In this document: in pieces, positions 48,246 through 60,906 of the stretch
How the letters are laid out: the number at the start of each line of letters is the position of its first letter
Position numbering within the stretch: position 1 is the first letter of the stretch
Assembly (NCBI GenBank): GCA_963719225.1
Contig: CAVRAY010000001.1
Coordinates: forward strand, 1,056,001-1,120,000
Length of the DNA stretch: 64,000 nucleotides
Direction of reading: 5' to 3'
DNA from: Thermoanaerobaculia bacterium
GTDB taxonomy: Bacteria; Acidobacteriota; Thermoanaerobaculia; UBA5066
Translations under genes and position numbers: made by a program
The notes under the pieces: model-generated
What the model saw: only the letters and a program-made list of their open reading frames with translations
What the model was told of the DNA's origin: nothing
Databases searched by the model: none

Positions 48246-48274
48246 GATCGTTCCCTGCGCCGCCTAACGATATC

Positions 48275-48314
48275 GTTTCAATGAAGAGGAGAAAAGGGCT
48301 GTCCTCGCCGACGT
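48275..48314 (+). mobile_element. Isolated left end of IS-C (IS1111-like) joined to an attC R' half
   Basis: Near-identical to 49064-49103; follows GCCTAACGATATC. Confidence 0.6.
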
Positions 48315-49010: not shown

Positions 49011-49063
49011 GCGCTCTTCCTTTTCTTGCGCGCTGGAAGTGCTTCCTGTGTTCTAACGATATC

Positions 49064-49440
49064 GTTTCAATGAAGACGAGAAAAGGGCTGTCCTCGCCGA
49101 CGTGGTCACCGAAAAATCGGGCCACAAACTTTAACGGGGTCAGCCTCCGAGAAGGTGCCCCAAGCACGGGAGGACAGCCCGATGAAATCTTATGTGGAAC
49201 TGGACGTTCACAGCAAGTCGAGCGTATTCGTGATCCAGAACGAGCGGGAAGAGGAGCTGGGACGAGGTGAGGTGCCGACGTCTGTGGAGGGGTTCTCCTC
49301 GCTTCGGGGGCGTTTCAGGCTTCGCGCCTCGACGACCGTTCCAGGAGTGGGAGAGATCGTGGCGCTGACGGCAATCGCGGTCTTCTCTGACGCCACACGC
49401 TTTCCGAACGCCAAGCGTGCTTCCAGTTACGCAGGGTGTA
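49064..49440 (+). pseudogene. IS-C: internally deleted IS110/IS1111-family element remnant
   Basis: ATG 49182 MKSYVELDVHSKSS (N-terminal DEDD start) joined to TVPGVGEIVA...RFPNAKRASSYAG (C-terminal domain); IR GGGCTGTCCTC 49085-49095 with inverted copy 49170-49180 over the RBS. Confidence 0.75.
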
Positions 49441-50070: not shown

Positions 50071-50130
50071 GCCTAACGATATCAAGATCAGCGGCGAGCG
50101 TAGCGAGTCCGCTGCAGCGCGGTGTTAGAC
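50071..50130 (-). other. attC site, intact, 60 bp
   Basis: GCCTAAC...TCAGCGGCGAGCGTAGCGAGTCCGCTGCAGC-GCGGT-GTTAGAC; R'' complementary to its cassette start GTTAGACGCCG. Confidence 0.9.
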
Positions 50131-50632: not shown

Positions 50633-50635
50633 GGA

Positions 50636-51275
50636 TGTTGACCCGGTCTCGTTGACACGCTGTTAGGCGGCGTTTCGTTCGTAGTTGATCGGCGAAAGAT
50701 AACCCAGGGACGAGTGGAGGCGTTTTCCGTTGTAGCGGCGGACGTAGCGACATACGGCGAGGCTGAGCGAGCGATCGTCTTCGAAGGTGCGGCCGTGGAA
50801 GACGTCGGATTTCATCGAGTGGAAGAAGGACTCGATGAAGGCGTTGTCACAGATCTCTCGGGGGCGCTTCATGCTCTGCGTGATGCCGAGGGCAGCCAGG
50901 CGCGCGCGAAAGGCGTAGGCCGAGTACTCGACGCCGCGGTCGGAGTGAAAGATCAGGCCGGGTCGTGGCTGCTGGTGGCGAATCGCGCGATTGAGAGCCA
51001 TGCGGGTGAGAGTCAGGTCACGCCTGGAGCGAAGACTCCAGCCCAAGACTCGCCGGGAGTGGCGATCCAGCACGACGGCCAGGTAGCGCCAGCGGCCGGC
51101 GCTGCTGAGGTACGTCACGTCGCCGACCCAGATCTCTCCGGGCGCCTTCGTACTCAGGCCGAGTACGCGATTGGGGATCGCGGCATAGAAACGGCGGGTG
51201 CCCGGCGTGCGCCGGTAGAGGCGAGCCGAGCGCGCCTTAAGGGCCGCAGAGCGCATCAGGCGGGCCACTCTCGCC
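50636..51275 (-). pseudogene. Truncated IS3-family element (orfB rve domain plus one terminal IR)
   Basis: WVGDVTY, FHSDRGVEY, DNAFIESFF, YN.KRLHSSLGYLSP; TG-initiated end at 50636; orfA absent. Confidence 0.85.
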
Positions 51276-51526
51276 AGCGAGCCGCAACGCGGCATGAACG
51301 CGTGGGCTGCCATAGGTGCCCTCGCTCGCTTCGAAGACGGCGCGAATACGCCCGAGCAGCCGCTCGTCCTCTCGGGCTCGAGCACTCGGCTCGCGGCGGC
51401 GAAAGGAGTAGTACGGCTCTGTCGGGAGAGCCGATATTTAGGTATTCGTGCACGAGCCTGGCCGCTAACGAGCGTCATTACGATCTCGGTCCGGGGATGT
51501 TGGCTTTGGCCCTTCGGTGTTCGCCT

Positions 51527-51751: not shown

Positions 51752-51923
51752 GACGACGTGGAGGTTGACATTAATGCTTCGGGTCTCTCGTTCCGGGGGT
51801 CTAACGATATCAAGCTCAGCGGCGAGCGTAGCGAGATGGGATGAGAAGGCCGGTCTCCCCAACGCAGTCGGAGAATCCGCTGCAAGGGAAAAGCGGGCTC
51901 GAGGCCCAGAAGGGAGACCGGCC

Positions 51924-53018
51924 GTGAAGAAGCGTAGCACTGGGAACGGGGCCGAGGTGACGGGGGCGTGGACGCTGGGAATGGACTTGGGGGATCGGAC
52001 GAGTCACATCTGCGTGCTTGACGAGGGAGGGACGGTCGTCGAGCGGGGCAAGGTCCAGACGACGCAGGAAGGGATGCGGAAGCGGTTCGAAGGAGCGCCC
52101 CGAATGCGAGTTGCCATGGAGGTGGGGACACATTCGCCGTGGGTGAGCCGGCTTCTAAAAGGGTTTGGGCACGAGGTCCTGGTGGCCAACCCGCGAAAGA
52201 CGCGGCTGATCTACCAGAACCGCGGGAAGCAGGATCCTGTGGATGCCGAGGCGCTGGCGAGGATCGCGCGGCTGGACCCGAAGCTTCTCTATCCCGTGGC
52301 GCACCGGGCCGAGAGCGTCGCGCAGGATCTGGCCGTGGTTCGGGCGCGCGATGCGCTGGTGAGGACACGGTCGCTGCTCATCAATCACGTCCGCGGCGCG
52401 GTCAAGGCGACGGGCCACCGCGTCAAGAAATGCTCGACCCGGACGTTCTCGAAAAGAGCGGTGGGTGAAATCCCCGAGCAAGTGCGCGAGGCGTTGTCGA
52501 GTGTCGTGACGACCATCGAGGTCGTGTCGAAACAGATTCTCGTGCTGGACAAGCGAATCCGAGAGCTGGGGAAAGAGAAATACCCCGAGACAGCGTTGCT
52601 CAGGCAGGTAGGCGGAGTGGGCCCGATCGTGGCGCTGGCCTACATCCTGACGCTCGAGCATCCGGGTCGCTTCCTGAAGAGCCGGGCCGTGGGGCCCTGG
52701 CTCGGGCTTGTGCCGGCGCGAAGCCAGAGCGGAAACTCCGACCCGCAGCTGCGCATCACGAAGGAAGGAGACACCTTGCTGCGCCGGCTTCTTGTTCAGG
52801 CGGCGCAGTACATCCTCGGGCCATTCGGAGAGGACTGCGATCTCAGGCGATTCGGTCAGGCTCTTTCGGCCCGAGGGGAACGCAACGCCAAGAAACGAGC
52901 CGTCATCGCCGTCGCAAGAAAGCTGGCCGTGCTGCTGCATCGGCTGTGGAAGAGCGCAGAGGTCTATGAGCCGCTACGCAGGGCCGGAACGCTCCAGGAC
53001 GCGACCGTGGCGGCCTAA
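51924..53018 (+). CDS. IS110-family transposase/recombinase (IS-A)
   Basis: GMDLG, AMEVG, KQDPVDA (DEDD); GLVPARSQSG serine motif. Confidence 0.95.
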   Translation: MKKRSTGNGAEVTGAWTLGMDLGDRTSHICVLDEGGTVVERGKVQTTQEGMRKRFEGAPRMRVAMEVGTHSPWVSRLLKGFGHEVLVANPRKTRLIYQNRGKQDPVDAEALARIARLDPKLLYPVAHRAESVAQDLAVVRARDALVRTRSLLINHVRGAVKATGHRVKKCSTRTFSKRAVGEIPEQVREALSSVVTTIEVVSKQILVLDKRIRELGKEKYPETALLRQVGGVGPIVALAYILTLEHPGRFLKSRAVGPWLGLVPARSQSGNSDPQLRITKEGDTLLRRLLVQAAQYILGPFGEDCDLRRFGQALSARGERNAKKRAVIAVARKLAVLLHRLWKSAEVYEPLRRAGTLQDATVAA

Positions 53019-53094
53019 GAAATCAGCCAAGGGAAACAGCGAAAGGAAATAGCGAGAGGTCTCGATCAATCGTGGCCATCCCAATTCGAGCTAA

Positions 53095-53260
53095 CGCCCC
53101 GTCAGGGCGACTGCGCAGCGGACTCCGGTCCCCACGGGTTTCGGCCCGTGAAGGAAAACCGGCGCCGAGATTGCAGCGCCCCTACGGATTGGACCCCCTC
53201 ATGCACCGGGCCAAAAGAACATGGCCTACACGAGTGCGAATGGAAGCTCGGCGAACAACT
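53095..53260 (+). ncRNA. Putative bridge/seek RNA of IS-A copy 1 (boundaries approximate)
   Basis: Internal-loop hairpin carrying GCAGCGGACT (target match) and downstream ATGGAAG (donor match). Confidence 0.75.
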
Positions 53261-53354
53261 CGAACCCGGGGATTCCCAAAGGAGATCTCAGCCCTCTCTT
53301 GACTACGACCGGCCTTCTCATGGAAGTCCGCTGCAACGAGTTGTTGGGCGGCGA

Positions 53355-53624
53355 CTAACGCTGGCCGATGAGACGCTCGTACTCGTCGTGCGAGCCGACC
53401 CAGAACCAGACGATGTCCTCGCCCTCCCGCACGCCGAGAGCGCGATAGTGGATGCCGATGCGAACCGAGTAAATCGGACGCGAAGGGTGCACCGGCTTGA
53501 AGCGCAGACCTGGATGATTGGGATCGGACCGAAAGAGGGTGTAGGCGCGCTGAGCCTGCGCACGAACCTGAAGAGGAAGCGCCTCGAGTGCCTTACGGAA
53601 GGCGGCGGTAGTACGCGACCTCAC
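53355..53624 (-). CDS. RelE/ParE-like toxin (gene cassette)
   Basis: FRKAL..LP...DPNHPGLRFK...SVRIG.HYRALG...WFWVGSHDEY. Confidence 0.8.
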   Translation of the reverse strand: MRSRTTAAFRKALEALPLQVRAQAQRAYTLFRSDPNHPGLRFKPVHPSRPIYSVRIGIHYRALGVREGEDIVWFWVGSHDEYERLIGQR

Positions 53625-53839
53625 CGAGGCTTCGGGTCGAGATCCCGAGTGTTGCCCGAGCGATGCTCCGCGAGCGCCGCATCAGCGAGACGCTCGAGCG
53701 TGGAGCCGGAACGAGAGAAGGACTCGGCCCAACGCGCCTCATCCTCAAGCTCGGCCAGCAGCCACGAAGCTACTTCCTCCTGCTGGGGAGGAGGGAGCTT
53801 TGAGATTTCTGCGAGAGCCTTTTCGAGAAGCGCTGTCAT
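53621..53839 (-). CDS. Putative antitoxin (gene cassette)
   Basis: 72-aa MTALLEKALAEISKLP..QQEEVA.WLLAELEDEARW; 4-bp overlap with toxin. Confidence 0.75.
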   Translation of the reverse strand: MTALLEKALAEISKLPPPQQEEVASWLLAELEDEARWAESFSRSGSTLERLADAALAEHRSGNTRDLDPKPR

Positions 53840-54019
53840 GACTTTACCGCGGGAGATTCTACTCTCCCTGAGCCGCCTAACGATACCGAGTTCAGCGGCG
53901 AAGAGGAAGGAGCGAAGCGACTGACGATGAGATGGGATGAGAAGGCCGGTCTCCCCAACGCAGTCGGAGAATCCGCTGCAAGGGAAAAGCGGGCTCGAGG
54001 CCCAGAAGGGAGACCGGCC

Positions 54020-55114
54020 GTGAAGAAGCGTAGCACTGGGAACGGGGCCGAGGTGACGGGGGCGTGGACGCTGGGAATGGACTTGGGGGATCGGACGAGT
54101 CACATCTGCGTGCTTGACGAGGGAGGGACGGTCGTCGAGCGGGGCAAGGTCCAGACGACGCAGGAAGGGATGCGGAAGCGGTTCGAAGGAGCGCCCCGAA
54201 TGCGAGTTGCCATGGAGGTGGGGACACATTCGCCGTGGGTGAGCCGGCTTCTAAAAGGGTTTGGGCACGAGGTCCTGGTGGCCAACCCGCGAAAGACGCG
54301 GCTGATCTACCAGAACCGCGGGAAGCAGGATCCTGTGGATGCCGAGGCGCTGGCGAGGATCGCGCGGCTGGACCCGAAGCTTCTCTATCCCGTGGCGCAC
54401 CGGGCCGAGAGCGTCGCGCAGGATCTGGCCGTGGTTCGGGCGCGCGATGCGCTGGTGAGGACACGGTCGCTGCTCATCAATCACGTCCGCGGCGCGGTCA
54501 AGGCGACGGGCCACCGCGTCAAGAAATGCTCGACCCGGACGTTCTCGAAAAGAGCGGTGGGTGAAATCCCCGAGCAAGTGCGCGAGGCGTTGTCGAGTGT
54601 CGTGACGACCATCGAGGTCGTGTCGAAACAGATTCTCGTGCTGGACAAGCGAATCCGAGAGCTGGGGAAAGAGAAATACCCCGAGACAGCGTTGCTCAGG
54701 CAGGTAGGCGGAGTGGGCCCGATCGTGGCGCTGGCCTACATCCTGACGCTCGAGCATCCGGGTCGCTTCCTGAAGAGCCGGGCCGTGGGGCCCTGGCTCG
54801 GGCTTGTGCCGGCGCGAAGCCAGAGCGGAAACTCCGACCCGCAGCTGCGCATCACGAAGGAAGGAGACACCTTGCTGCGCCGGCTTCTTGTTCAGGCGGC
54901 GCAGTACATCCTCGGGCCATTCGGAGAGGACTGCGATCTCAGGCGATTCGGTCAGGCTCTTTCGGCCCGAGGGGAACGCAACGCCAAGAAACGAGCCGTC
55001 ATCGCCGTCGCAAGAAAGCTGGCCGTGCTGCTGCATCGGCTGTGGAAGAGCGCAGAGGTCTATGAGCCGCTACGCAGGGCCGGAACGCTCCAGGACGCGA
55101 CCGTGGCGGCCTAA
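54020..55114 (+). CDS. IS110-family transposase/recombinase (IS-A)
   Basis: Same translation as 51924-53018. Confidence 0.95.
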   Translation: MKKRSTGNGAEVTGAWTLGMDLGDRTSHICVLDEGGTVVERGKVQTTQEGMRKRFEGAPRMRVAMEVGTHSPWVSRLLKGFGHEVLVANPRKTRLIYQNRGKQDPVDAEALARIARLDPKLLYPVAHRAESVAQDLAVVRARDALVRTRSLLINHVRGAVKATGHRVKKCSTRTFSKRAVGEIPEQVREALSSVVTTIEVVSKQILVLDKRIRELGKEKYPETALLRQVGGVGPIVALAYILTLEHPGRFLKSRAVGPWLGLVPARSQSGNSDPQLRITKEGDTLLRRLLVQAAQYILGPFGEDCDLRRFGQALSARGERNAKKRAVIAVARKLAVLLHRLWKSAEVYEPLRRAGTLQDATVAA

Positions 55115-55190
55115 GAAATCAGCCAAGGGAAACAGCGAAAGGAAATAACGAGAGGTCTCGATCAATCGTGGCCATCCCAATTCGAGCTAA

Positions 55191-55356
55191 CGCCCCGTCA
55201 GGGCGACTGCGCAGCGGACTCCGGTCCCCACGGGTTTCGGCCCGTGAAGGAAAACCGGCGCCGAGATTGCAGCGCCCCTACGGATTGGACCCCCTCATGC
55301 ACCGGGCCAAAAGAACATGGCCTACACGAGTGCGAATGGAAGCTCGGCGAACAACT
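55191..55356 (+). ncRNA. Putative bridge/seek RNA of IS-A copy 2
   Basis: Same sequence as 53095-53260 (offset 2096). Confidence 0.75.
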
Positions 55357-55522
55357 CGAACCCGGGGATTCCCAAAGGAGATCTCAGCCCTCTCTTGACT
55401 ACGACCGGCCTTCTCATGGAAGTCCGCTGCAAGGATGGAGTGGACTCCTCCTTCATGACGTGAAACGGCATCTGTGTGCCAACGTCATCGAGTCGGAGAG
55501 TGAAGCCGAAAAGGAGGAGTCC

Positions 55523-56578
55523 ATGGAGAATCCTACGACGATCGCGATCGACCTGTCCAAGAGCGTTTTCGAGATCGCCGTCGAGCGCGGGGGGCGGATC
55601 TGCCAGAGGAAGCGGCTGAGCCGAGGGCAGATGATCACGTTTCTTTCGCAGTGCCCCAGGGCCACGATCCTCATGGAGACGTGTGGCACCTCGCACTACT
55701 GGGGCCGCAAGGCGCAGGAGCTCGGGCACGACGTGCGGCTGCTTCCGGCACAGCACGTCAGGCCGTACCGCATCGGCCAGAAGATCGACCGCAGGGACGC
55801 CGAAGCGATCCTGAGCGCGCGGCACCGAGAAACGATCGTCGCCGTGCCCGTCAAGACGGTCGAGCAGCAGACCATCTGCGCGCTTCACCGGGTGCGCGCG
55901 GCGCTGATGAAGACCCGGACCGCCCGGCTGAACACCGTGAGAGGTCTGCTGAGGGAATTCGGGGTTGTGATTGCCGAGGGAGCCGAGAGAGTCCAGCCGG
56001 CGCTTTTCGAAGCCCTCTCGCAGTCTTCCTCGCCCGTGCCCGAGCCCCTTCACGCGGCGCTCATGGCGATGATGGCCGAGGCCCGAGAGCTCGAGGAAAG
56101 AAGCGGGCAGGTCGAAAAGCAGCTGAAGGCCCTGGCCCGGACGGCTCCTCTCGTCGAGAGGCTCGAGACGATTCCGGGTGTAGGTCTCCTGAACGCCACG
56201 GCGTTTTCTGCGATGGTCGGAGACTTTCGGCGCTTCAAGTCGGGACGGAAGTTTGCGAGCTCGCTCGGGCTGACGCCGAAGGAAAGCTCGAGCGGAAAGA
56301 GAAGGTGGCTCGGGTCGATCAGCAAGGCCGGAGACCCGTACCTCAGGACGCTTTTGATCGGCGGGGCCCGCTCGATGCTGCTCTCGGCCCACCGCAGGAA
56401 AAGGCCGCATGACCTGCAGCGATGGGCGCTCGAGGTCGAGAACAGGCGCGGGCGAAACCGCGCCGCAGTCGCCGTCGCAAACAAGCTCGCCCGGATCATC
56501 TGGGCCGTCGCGACGCGGGGCGAGCCGTTCAAGGCCAGGTTCGCCGCTCAGAACCCTCCAGCAACCGCTTCTGCCTGA
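55523..56578 (+). CDS. IS110-family transposase/recombinase (IS-B)
   Basis: AIDLSK, LMETC, KIDRRDA (DEDD); GLTPKESSSG. Confidence 0.95.
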   Translation: MENPTTIAIDLSKSVFEIAVERGGRICQRKRLSRGQMITFLSQCPRATILMETCGTSHYWGRKAQELGHDVRLLPAQHVRPYRIGQKIDRRDAEAILSARHRETIVAVPVKTVEQQTICALHRVRAALMKTRTARLNTVRGLLREFGVVIAEGAERVQPALFEALSQSSSPVPEPLHAALMAMMAEARELEERSGQVEKQLKALARTAPLVERLETIPGVGLLNATAFSAMVGDFRRFKSGRKFASSLGLTPKESSSGKRRWLGSISKAGDPYLRTLLIGGARSMLLSAHRRKRPHDLQRWALEVENRRGRNRAAVAVANKLARIIWAVATRGEPFKARFAAQNPPATASA

Positions 56579-56654
56579 AACGAGAAAGTGGGAGAGAAAC
56601 CCGTCAGCCCTTCCCGCCGACGAACGCGAAAGATGCGACAGATGAGCTCGGTCC

Positions 56655-56795
56655 GACCGACACGGGGCAAAGCCGATAACACCTCTGGCTCCAAGAAGCC
56701 GTTGCACAACGATTGGCCCCCCGTGTGCGGATTTCATCCTGGCCCGGAGCCCACGAAGGCTCCAACAGAAGAGGCCGTAGATACGAGTGCCGTCG
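56655..56795 (+). ncRNA. Putative bridge/seek RNA of IS-B (boundaries approximate)
   Basis: Two internal-loop hairpins with target-like (TAACACCTC, GTTGCA) and donor-like (TTTCATCCT, AGATA) segments. Confidence 0.75.
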
Positions 56796-56976
56796 CGACC
56801 TTCTCCGCTCATCACCATCGATCGCGTTCCCACGCAGGAATCGCCCCCGACGACCCAGGATCGCCTGATTTCTTAGAAGGAGAAAAACCACAGACCGCCC
56901 GCACTTGATCCCAAGGAGGAGTCCAGATACGAGGGGTTAGGCCTCGTACGATGCGTGAATAATGGACGACCGAGGC

Positions 56977-57409: not shown

Positions 57410-57489
57410 GCCTAACGATATCGAGTTCAGCGGCGAAGAGGAAGGAGCGAAGCGACTGACGATGAGTCCGCTGCAATGAGTTGTTCGGC
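57410..57489 (-). other. attC site, intact, 80 bp (cassette 1)
   Basis: Minus strand GCCGAAC-AACTC-ATTGCAGC...GCTGAAC-TCGATATC-GTTAGGC. Confidence 0.92.
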
Positions 57490-57962: not shown

Positions 57963-57981
57963 GCCGAACTAGTATTAGACG
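57963..57981 (-). other. Putative attI core (crossover G57969/T57968)
   Basis: Minus strand CGTCTAATACTA-GTTCGGC; GTTCGGCGG complements R'' of first attC; no attC arm upstream. Confidence 0.7.
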
Positions 57982-58000
57982 TCTGGTGGGGTGGGTACAT

Positions 58001-58549: not shown

Positions 58550-59040
58550 GGCGCCTTCTTCTCCGGCCGCGCGAGGATCCCGATCCGGCGTCCGGCGTCG
58601 GAGTCGGCGATCAGCTGCGCGAGGCGACGCGCGCGGGTCTCGGGCTTCTTCGCGCTCGCGACCCAGAACGTCGAGACTCTCGTGTAGCCCGGCGGCTGGG
58701 CCTGGAAGAACCGCCACGCGCCCCGGTGTGCCCGGAACGTCCGCGCCGCCTCGCGGTCGAACGTCAGGGTGCTCCTCTGCTCGAAGGAGTAGACGCCCGT
58801 GCGCTTCGCCTCGATGTACCAGCGGCCTGAGTCGAGGCTGCGCCTGACGCCGTCGATCCACCCGAAGCAGAGCGCCTCGTCCAGCGCCTCGAAGTACGTG
58901 AGGCTCGTGCGCCCGGGCGCCTTCTTGAGGAACCCGACGAGGAGCTCGGTCACCTTCGCGTGGTTCTTCTGGAGCCAGCGGCGGAAGGCGGGGGCATCGT
59001 CGAAGAAGATCGGAGGCGGTGAGCGAGGTGCGTCTCTCAC
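58546..59040 (-). CDS. YdeI/OmpD-associated family protein (possibly internally deleted)
   Basis: FRRWLQKNH...[13 protein letters not shown]...FF.AQPPGY...[13 protein letters not shown]. Confidence 0.8.
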
Positions 59041-59990
59041 GGCCCGTCCAGCGGGCTCCTGACGCCGCGGCCTCCGGAGTTGAGAACGTGGGTGTAGATC
59101 ATCGTCGTCGCGACGTCGCGGTGGCCGAGGAGCTCCTGGATGGTGCGGATGTCGTAGCCGCTCTCGAGAAGGTGGGTCGCGAAGCTGTGGCGCAGGGTGT
59201 GGCAGGTCGCGAGCCTCGTGATGCCGGCGTCCGCGACGGCCCTCTGGACGGCCCGCTGGACGACGGATTCGGGGAGGTGGTGACGGCGGATTTCACCGCT
59301 CCGCGGGTCGACGCTCTCGCGCCCCGCGGGGAAGACGTACTGCCACGGCCAGCTCTTTGCGGCGCCGGGGTACTTGATGCGAATGGCGTCGGGAAGGTGG
59401 ACGTCGCCGCCGCCGCGCGCGCGGTCCGCGTCGTGCCGGGCGCGGACCTCCTCGAGATGCGCCGCGAGGTCCGGCCTGAGAACGGCGGAAAGCATCGTGA
59501 CGCGGTCCTTCTGGCCCTTGCCGTCGCGGACGAGGATCTCGTTGCGGGAGAGGTCGAGATCCTTGACGCGCAGGCGCAGCGCTTCCATGAGCCTGAGTCC
59601 GGAGCCGTAGAGAAGGGTCGCGACGAGGCGCGGCTCGCCGCGGAGGCGGGCGAGGATCCGGCGGACCTCCTCGCGCGTGAGGACGACGGGAAGGCGTGCC
59701 GGACGCCGGGCGCGGATGAGAGTCGACATCTCGGGGAACGGCTTGTCGAGGACGTTGCGATAGAGGAAGAGAAGCGCCGAGAGCGCCTGGTTCTGGGTGG
59801 AGGCCGCGACGCGGCCCTGCGTCGCGAGGGAGGAGAGAAAGGCGCCGATCTCGGCTTCGCCCATCTCGTCGGGATGGCGTTTGTCGTGAAAGACGACGAA
59901 CCGCCGGATCCATCCGACGTAGGCTTCCTCGGTCCGGAGGCTGTAATGGCGCGTGCGGAGCGCGGCACGCACGCGTTCGAGGAGCTTCAT
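59037..59990 (-). CDS. intI: Integron integrase
   Basis: [25 protein letters not shown], integron-specific [10 protein letters not shown]...[24 protein letters not shown]...TTMIYTHV. Confidence 0.97.
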
Positions 59991-60006
59991 GTTTCCTGCC
60001 GCGCAA

Positions 60007-60035
60007 AAGGTAGATCCGCGGTGCTCGCAAGTCAA
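60007..60035 (-). promoter_or_regulatory. Putative intI promoter
   Basis: TTGACT-N17-TACCTT on minus strand. Confidence 0.6.
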
Positions 60036-60117
60036 GCGTAAGTTTAGGCCTAGAATGAGCCACGATTCATTTTTTCCATGACGCGCCTCGAAAGGCATGC
60101 TACGTTCCCGGGTTGCC

Positions 60118-60906
60118 ATGAATCAGATCGTCTGCATCGCCTACGTCCCCGACACGGAAACCAGGATCCGCATCGCCCCGGGCGGCGTCTCGATCGACGA
60201 AGCCGACGTGAAGTGGATCGTGTCCCCCTACGACGAGTACGCGCTCGAGGGCGCGCTCAAGACGAAGGAAGCGAAAGGCGGGACCGTCACGGCCCTGACG
60301 TTCGGCCCCGCGCGCGCCGACACGGGCCTGCGCGAGAGCCTCGCCCGCGGCGCCGACGACGCGATCCGCATCGCGTCCGAGGGCCTCGGCGACGTGGATT
60401 CGCTCGGCGTGGCGCGCCTCCTCGCCGGCGTCATCGAGACCCTGCCCTACGACGTCGTGTGGATGGGCAACAAGGGCGTCGGCACGGACGCGCAGCTCCT
60501 CGTGCCCATGCTCGCCGAGCTCCTCGACCTGCCGCACGTGAATCTCGTGACGCAGCTCGAGTGGAAGGACGGCACGGTCGTCGCGCACCGCGAGATCGAG
60601 GGCGCGCAGGAAGTCGTCGAGATGCCGCTTCCCGGCATCATCGGTGCCACGAAGGGGCTGAACGAGCCGCGCTACGCGTCGCTGAAGGGGATCATGGCCG
60701 CGAAGAAGAAGGCGATCGCCGTGAAGACGCCCGCCGACGCCGGCGTCGATCCGGCGTCGATCTCCGGAGACGCCGTGCACGTGCGCTGGACGAAGCTCGA
60801 GCTGCCGCCCCCGCGGCAGGCCGTGAAGCTCGTCCCGGCGGATGACCCGGCGAAGGCCGCGACGGAGCTGCTGCGGCTGCTGCGGGAAGAGGCGAAGGTC
60901 CTTTGA
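60118..60906 (+). CDS. etfB: Electron transfer flavoprotein beta subunit
   Basis: [40 protein letters not shown]. Confidence 0.93.

Follow-up and report, generated by a model that had tools for sequence, protein, structure and literature searches.

Two copies of an insertion sequence, here termed IS-A, lie in attC sites of a chromosomal integron in this Thermoanaerobaculia genome. The non-coding region downstream of the IS-A transposase gene carries a predicted bridge (seek) RNA that very probably guides the IS-A recombinase to the AG/CT dinucleotide just inside the attC L'' box. A natural RNA-guided recombinase aimed at attC had been proposed from inspection of the DNA (the original prediction), and it is now backed by covariation of guides across relatives, by compensation within the RNA stems and by the fixed attC position at which relatives insert. 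Coordinates refer to the window, the whole 64,000-nt stretch of DNA that was analyzed.

IS-A and its integron setting

The chromosomal integron occupies 46.5–60 kb of the window. The features of the array and of IS-A are as follows.

50071..50130, + strand: empty attC, 60 bp, with a perfect IS-A target at 50106
50633..51478, − strand: truncated IS3-family (DDE) element, its end abutting the same GAG of another attC
51799..51835, + strand: portion of the interrupted attC to the left of IS-A, with boxes R' and L' and the AG core (51834–51835) at its end
51836..53324, + strand: IS-A copy 1, 1489 bp, AG core on each side
51841..51855, + strand: perfect 15-bp subterminal repeat (inverted) on the left, set back 7 nt when AG is counted in the element
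51848..51923, + strand: predicted 5' leader, with a 12-bp stem (51848–51859/51912–51923) over the ribosome-binding site
51863..51884, + strand: leader hairpin inside the stem, one U bulging out after 4 bp
51924..53018, + strand: IS110-family DEDD recombinase, 364 aa, with D21, E66, D104, D107 and S269 present
53299..53304, + strand: outward −35-like hexamer TTGACT, predicted half of a circle-junction promoter
53307..53321, + strand: perfect 15-bp subterminal repeat (inverted) on the right, set back 3 nt
53325..53349, + strand: right half of the interrupted attC, with the AG core and intact L'' and R'' boxes
53932..55420, + strand: IS-A copy 2, its attC being of the long 80-bp type, target loop at 55201–55277
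55433..56930, + strand: IS-B, an IS1111-attC-group element in the attC of copy 2, 10 nt from the IS-A right core
55523..56578, + strand: IS-B transposase, 47% identical to ISPa25
57410..57489, + strand: empty attC, 80 bp, with a perfect IS-A target at 57465
59037..59990, − strand: intI integron integrase, 317 aa from the ATG at 59990, on the cassette-gene strand

The integrase matches TIGR02249 with 467 bits against a cut-off of 265 (profile run on the longer ORF 59037–60119), and no further close integrase match occurs in the 4.75-Mb genome (68% GC). It faces the array, and other ORFs take up the roughly 1 kb between it and an attI-like site near 57964–57990. Cassette genes lie on the minus strand throughout the array, so the plus strand is the attC sites' bottom strand. 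The boxes of these sites are termed R'', L'', L' and R'; names and spacing agree with PMC5371416. A left-arm pattern identifies 19 attC sites genome-wide, the majority in the window array and in a second cluster at C1:2.197–2.209 Mb. That cluster (C1:2197244–2208975, minus strand) and a solitary attC at C1:291420 are of the same type, and a genome search found no integron integrase match near either. In sites like that at 50071–50130 the R'-side spacer measures 8 nt and the bottom strand carries an additional C; the class 1 attC in loci L123 and L124 instead combine a 6-nt spacer with an extra G. Two attC-like left arms (48262–48314 and 49053–49103) have a 51-bp repeat in common, with no right half visible, and the second is followed by an IS110 transposase remnant (PF02371, 49155–49559). 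The cassette between the IS-A copies (53355–53839) contains a ParE-like toxin ORF (PF24732) and a small upstream ORF, probably a toxin–antitoxin pair.

By sequence, IS-A is an IS110-family insertion sequence of IS1111-type layout. Its two copies differ by one base, and the genome holds no others. Contigs of related organisms show the empty site: in 4/4 runs the counterpart of 51835 is followed at once by the right arm, which fixes the junction. Outside the inverted repeats the element has extensions of seven (AG-ATGGG, left) and three (GGA, right) nucleotides. The transposase contains domains PF01548 and PF02371 and matches NF033542 with 212 bits (cut-off 140). D21, E66, D104, D107, S269 and G270 are invariant among 65 homologs, and the predicted catalytic DEDD and SG residues are intact. 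Its close relatives come from records titled Acidobacteriota or Thermoanaerobaculia; one related copy, in locus L010, has a scrambled right end. The gene is followed by a long non-coding region (53019–53324).

The predicted 5' leader is a recurrent part of the element, its stem being found in 27 of 45 clusters (shuffled mean 4.0) and its bulged-U hairpin in 31 of 45 (shuffled mean 0.38), with varying sequence. In the modeled fold the stem over the ribosome-binding site would damp translation. In 17 of the 45 clusters the hairpin arms are the reverse complement of the invariant outer stem of the RNA target loop described below; an antisense copy of the hairpin would then resemble that stem; alternatively, leader and stem could base-pair. 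The IS-A hairpin contains TCCGCTGC at 51876–51883. It was considered as a second target or restored attC arm and rejected, as it has neither AG core nor GTT box and in relatives the hairpin does not follow the guide.

The predicted guide RNA and its attC target

The predicted RNA comprises the following elements.

53105..53181, + strand: predicted target-binding loop, outer stem with a bulged A, inner stem 53125–53129/53158–53162
53115..53124, + strand: 5' target guide, complementing the plus-strand right flank and core; 53115 is a scaffold base
53163..53169, + strand: 3' target guide CGCCG-AG, reading in the sense of left flank and core
53193..53201, + strand: left donor guide, weakly matching (6/9) the reverse-complemented left end
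53203..53237, + strand: donor-loop inner stem (GCAC 53203–53206/GTGC 53234–53237), enclosing a variable hairpin
53240..53246, + strand: right donor guide ATGGAAG, identical to the right end and core

Most of this architecture had been read correctly beforehand. The outer stem is formed by GGGCGACTGC (53105–53114) and GCAGCGCCC (53173–53181), and the inner stem by CCGGT (53125–53129) and ACCGG (53158–53162). The 5' strand between them, GCAGCGGACT (53115–53124), has its counterpart AGTCCGCTGC at both right junctions (53325 and 55421) and at the empty sites 50106 and 57465. ATGGAAG (53240–53246) in the second hairpin repeats the right end and core, and the other donor guide is weak, as had been noted. 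Three points needed refinement, the first being the role of G53115, treated below. The 3' guide is longer than the proposed CGAG, namely CGCCG-AG, with the five positions before AG covarying. Both stems of the proposed internal loop are present, and in the minimum-energy fold the loop is not fully open, as some pairing occurs between the 5' and 3' target guides. Keeping the four guides unpaired raises the folding energy by 10 kcal/mol (from −72.3 to −62.3), and the region folds only modestly better than shuffled sequences (z −2.2; 5/200 as good). Because the single-sequence fold is modest and the loop partly closed, the case rests on comparison with relatives. A search of the window at the Rfam gathering threshold returned no matches. 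Taken with the comparative data, 53105–53246 is read as a two-loop bridge-type RNA downstream of the IS-A transposase, with all four predicted guides readable.

Relatives were compared at 120 loci (sets of 10 and 30, plus 80 of 562 confirmed) in 63 groups at 75% protein identity. Ends and loops were parsed by fixed conserved motifs, so that relatives with other scaffolds were dropped, leaving 84/120 loci usable for the 5' guide and 70/120 for the 3' guide. The covariation of guide and flank called for by the original prediction is evident for both target guides. Between a 5' guide and the right flank of the same locus, 6.49 of 8 positions agree on average, against 3.45 when flanks are permuted (0/10,000; 43 clusters at under 75% identity, one locus each; four offsets allowed for real and permuted pairs alike), a permutation count that, like those below, overstates significance because the cluster representatives are still related. 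Leaving out the cluster of IS-A itself gives 6.45/8. For the 3' guide, anchored on the scaffold, the match is 4.21/5 against 1.43 (0/10,000; 38 clusters), with per-position agreement of 0.71–0.97 vs. 0.25–0.30 and a signal that ends sharply after position 5. G53115 is an invariant scaffold base across 38 aligned RNAs and the outermost flank position does not covary with the 5' guide (0.37 vs. 0.39), so the programmable stretch of this guide amounts to some 7 nt in addition to the CT core. Multi-copy distant relatives have a guide-matching flank at every copy examined. In the alignment of 38 RNAs, 97.9% of cells in the outer stems (two scaffold helices) are paired; double changes occur at 5/14 pairs, the covariation score was reached in 0/500 shuffles, and the 8/14 pairs that never vary are uninformative.

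The targets of the close relatives are nearly always attC sites. Of 29 genomes in the genus, 10 contain the RNA region, the genome studied here included (DNA search), and among relatives of at least 72% identity the 10-nt 5' guide is identical in every locus where it is readable. With identical flanks merged first, 15 of 16 distinct right junctions begin with TCCGCTGC, the full 8-nt attC arm, and the remaining one meets a contig end after seven matching bases; a GTT box follows 15–16 nt on in 13/16. The attC arm is likewise found in 11 of 14 distinct left flanks, the other three being 2 nt long, abutting an IS3 end, and a variant, respectively. Outside the close cluster, none of 96 loci has a guide matching the IS-A target at more than 5/8 positions. 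A simple attC pattern was met by 5/51 reconstructed targets, all in the cluster of IS-A, and by 3/3000 random sites; as it missed long or partial true attC, other attC-like loci were read by eye.

Four distant members read in this way (L061, L066, L095 and L086; 53–59% identity, a single locus each) have guide-matching flanks resembling other attC positions: inside L'' in opposite orientation, inside L', in the R'' spacer and beside an R box. Locus L037 was rejected as attC-specific: it lies beside attC-like sequence, but the other four copies of the element do not.

Unlike the 5' guide, the 3' guide varies among close relatives. GCCG-type guides are found at GCCG flanks in 3/5 insertions and AGCG/AACG-type guides in 0/7 (Fisher p 0.045, the insertions not being independent), which suggests a 3' guide tuned to long versus short attC subtypes. 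The window guide is of the long type and matches the copy 1 flank at 2/5 and the copy 2 flank at 3/5 positions; its type explains the poor fit to the short site of copy 1.

The perfect 10-mer occurs at 22 sites in the genome, 15 of them attC and 7 not, and 13 further attC with this 10-mer lack IS-A, including those at 50106 and 57465. The seven non-attC sites, all unoccupied, match the 3' guide at 1–4 of 5 positions and the occupied sites do no better, so guide sequence alone does not explain the strict use of attC. It is possible, though somewhat doubtful, that the guide is necessary and that strictness comes from attC adopting a hairpin or single-stranded form, or from selection removing insertions that hit genes. 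The empty non-attC sites would fit such an arrangement; all seven lie in stop-free frames of 381–877 codons, a weak point at 68% GC, and an IS3-family element uses the same GAG in 6/9 loci. On the other side, the genome holds only two insertions, 15 of the 22 10-mer sites are attC in any case, and relatives with other guides insert in non-attC DNA, none of the non-cluster loci among the 51 having passed the simple attC pattern (which missed some true attC).

The IS3-family loci were found in the 29 genomes, and the six at this position (the window element, L150, L151, L152, L156 and L157) are all at least 69% identical. The element begins with GG at either end, and its insertion is accompanied by an apparent 3-bp duplication. 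In L003, IS-A is inserted into the IS3-duplicated GAG, and in L151 an IS3 and an IS-B-like element are located in one attC. Use of the same three bases by an unrelated DDE enzyme hints that the GAG spot may be a structural hot spot. We found no description of an IS3-family element at this attC position in the literature covered, which lay outside subscription journals and ISfinder.

Predicted donor guides, proposed mechanism and probable effect on attC

The second loop appears to read the ends of the element. A G/A position in the right donor guide agrees with the element end in 45/45 clusters (34 G-G, 11 A-A) and in 86 of 87 loci. On a 43-row tree the guide base and the end base change five times each, always together; just three independent pairs fall on well-supported branches, all of them concordant (p 0.25). 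The left donor guide scores 5.32/9 vs. 4.75 (0/5,000; 34 clusters, best of five registers tried), and three of its positions covary (0.79–0.88 vs. 0.59–0.69). Conceivably, the target loop (about 53100–53185) acts alone, with the protein recognizing the ends through the 15-bp repeats and the second loop being an expendable portion of a longer precursor. In the case of ISEc11, transposition was better supported by an 82-nt RNA confined to the target part than by the long form (PMC11187229), and the left donor guide of IS-A is not only weak but also does not follow left-end changes in the close cluster. The five parallel changes of right guide and right end, the three covarying left positions and an invariant donor stem all speak for a functional second loop, and a target loop acting alone is considered unlikely. 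The donor-guide covariation bears on the difference between the bridge-RNA and seekRNA accounts of IS1111-type elements.

By analogy with IS621 and ISEc11/ISKpn4, as described in PMC11208160, PMC11187229 and PMC13626964, IS-A would excise as a circle whose joined ends complete a promoter, from which transposase and RNA would be transcribed. The first loop would open the double-stranded target, 53116–53124 pairing with the plus strand and 53163–53169 with the minus strand, the second loop would read the circle junction, and the DEDD/serine recombinase would exchange strands at the core. A TTGAC, TTGCC or TTGAT motif is positioned 26–28 nt from the element end in 39/47 clusters. The end-to-end circle joint was found in none of the contigs of four runs of relatives, in which its absence is not demonstrable.

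IS-A runs antisense to the cassette genes. Its insertion interrupts none of the boxes R'', L'', L' and R' but lengthens the attC terminal loop by 1.5 kb. Natural attC measure 57–141 bp and large loops disfavor the active fold (PMC5371416), which makes inactivation the likelier outcome; IS-A probably disables its attC in this way. A broader and distinctly improbable synthesis would view attC as an address onto which the IS110 recombinase family has been re-programmed several times at different positions (IS-A; L061, L066, L095 and L086), with a 12-bp stretch of this attC type contested by three unrelated elements. On this view the paired subterminal repeats of IS-A, the only one of these elements to spare all four integrase boxes, could close the 1.5-kb insert into a loop, so that the site would stay recombinogenic and the element would ride with cassettes rather than freeze them.

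The mechanism itself and RNA-guided attC targeting are already known (PMC11187229). IS-A would add a natural case of guide reprogramming, in which a second RNA-guided lineage uses the same target class beside the first in one attC. As filled and empty sites occur in one genome, the rules of targeting and the consequences for cassette shuffling are open to direct testing. With four readable guides on a compact scaffold unlike that of IS621 or ISKpn4, the IS-A family is a candidate for new bridge-recombinase tools.

Lineage and comparison with known systems

RNA-guided attC targeting has been published for ISKpn4 and ISPst6, whose seekRNAs co-purify with their transposases, and ISPa25 has guides in common with both (PMC11187229). 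The IS1111-attC group is defined as monophyletic with ISPa21/ISPst6 relatives, as cited in PMC3001079. The original prediction cited the known attC-targeting IS1111 elements as background; attC targeting by IS-A is supported, but IS-A falls outside the published group. Its transposase is 26–28% identical to those of ISPa25, ISPa21, ISPa62, a Klebsiella plasmid relative and IS-B. An AU test rejects a single clade of all attC-targeting proteins with p 4.9e-8, on a quick tree of 25 rows in which the group was represented by ISPa25, ISPa21, ISPa62 and one further relative, without the ISKpn4 and ISPst6 proteins, and from which 36 of 61 rows were left out, one as a long branch. The 61-row quick tree places IS-A among relatives with other guides, and IS-A lies outside a clade of 10 classical IS1111-like proteins (SH-aLRT 100, in a tree lacking an IS110 outgroup and IS1111 itself). 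At 364 aa, the protein is longer than the 330–350 aa of the tight IS1111 cluster (features of Siddiquee 2024). ISKpn4-group targets are cut 6 nt before GTT (PMC13604230, Table 1); group members and IS-B insert 6 nt before the GTT of R'', whereas the IS-A right junction lies 16 nt before it, on the inner side of L''.

That IS-A is an ordinary member of the published group is thus very improbable: the downstream non-coding region, 7 + 3 extensions, guide order, antisense orientation and attC target would agree with membership, but the low identity, the AU result, a different RNA scaffold and the displaced insertion point do not. From these comparisons IS-A is assigned to a separate lineage with another insertion point, and this lineage, nested among relatives with other guides and targets, likely reached its attC guide separately from the described group. 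Scarcely credible, finally, is a guide match that arose by accident or as a duplicated fragment of flank without any part in targeting: brief resemblances do occur in a GC-rich element, as the TCCGCTGC of the leader hairpin illustrates, but the 10-mer matches on either strand in just 19/20,000 dinucleotide shuffles of the non-coding region, and the covariation is position-specific over dozens of different targets.

The IS-A lineage is apparently undescribed, with a known mechanism. Three short protein motifs gave no match to a named ISfinder-type relative in seven supplement files of PMC11208160. The best plasmid matches to the transposase are at most 34% identical, with no element name among the best 60 of 1570. 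The literature covered, to which subscription journals and ISfinder do not belong and whose figures may list members, contained no description.

The neighboring IS-B does belong to the IS1111-attC group, judging from its protein, RNA and insertion point. It groups with ISPa25 (SH-aLRT 94) and has five copies, in the window and at C1:2198838–2210165; one of them is partial, and the known attC junction bounds each. Its RNA is ISKpn4-like, with a segment at 56675 retuned to the local attC spacer. IS-A copy 2 and IS-B occupy one attC, as do an IS-A and an IS-B-like element in L010.

Compared with the IS1111-attC group (ISKpn4, ISPst6, ISPa25 and ISPa21), IS-A is alike in its DEDD recombinase, its downstream RNA and its 7 + 3 extensions, which are characteristic of IS1111-type elements outside their subterminal repeats (PMC11187229). 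It is also alike in guide order, with the top-strand complement 5' of the bottom-strand match (53115–53124, then 53163–53169), and in an attC target entered in the orientation opposite to the cassette genes. It differs in its unrelated RNA scaffold, in its transposase branch and in the insertion point, the group inserting between L'' and R'' and IS-A 10 nt further in; unlike the account given for the group, IS-A has an evident donor-reading loop. Group IIC-attC introns are likewise RNA-based and insert into attC antisense to the cassette array, but they are retroelements that use reverse splicing, whereas IS-A encodes a DNA recombinase (PMC3001079). With IS621 and ISCro4, IS-A has in common two loops and four guides, each with a 2-nt core reading CT on one strand, and a RuvC-type DEDD domain with a C-terminal serine. 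Profile matches of the transposase to PDB entries 8wt6 and 9t56 (IS621/ISCro4) have E values of 8e-18 and 2e-17. The bridge RNA of IS621 lies upstream, at the left end of an element with short repeats, whereas that of IS-A is located in the right end of an element with 15-bp repeats. Unlike IS621 and ISCro4, IS-A is predicted to read its target on the strand opposite to the transposase, with guides of about 7 + 2 and 5 + 2 nt and with different targets.
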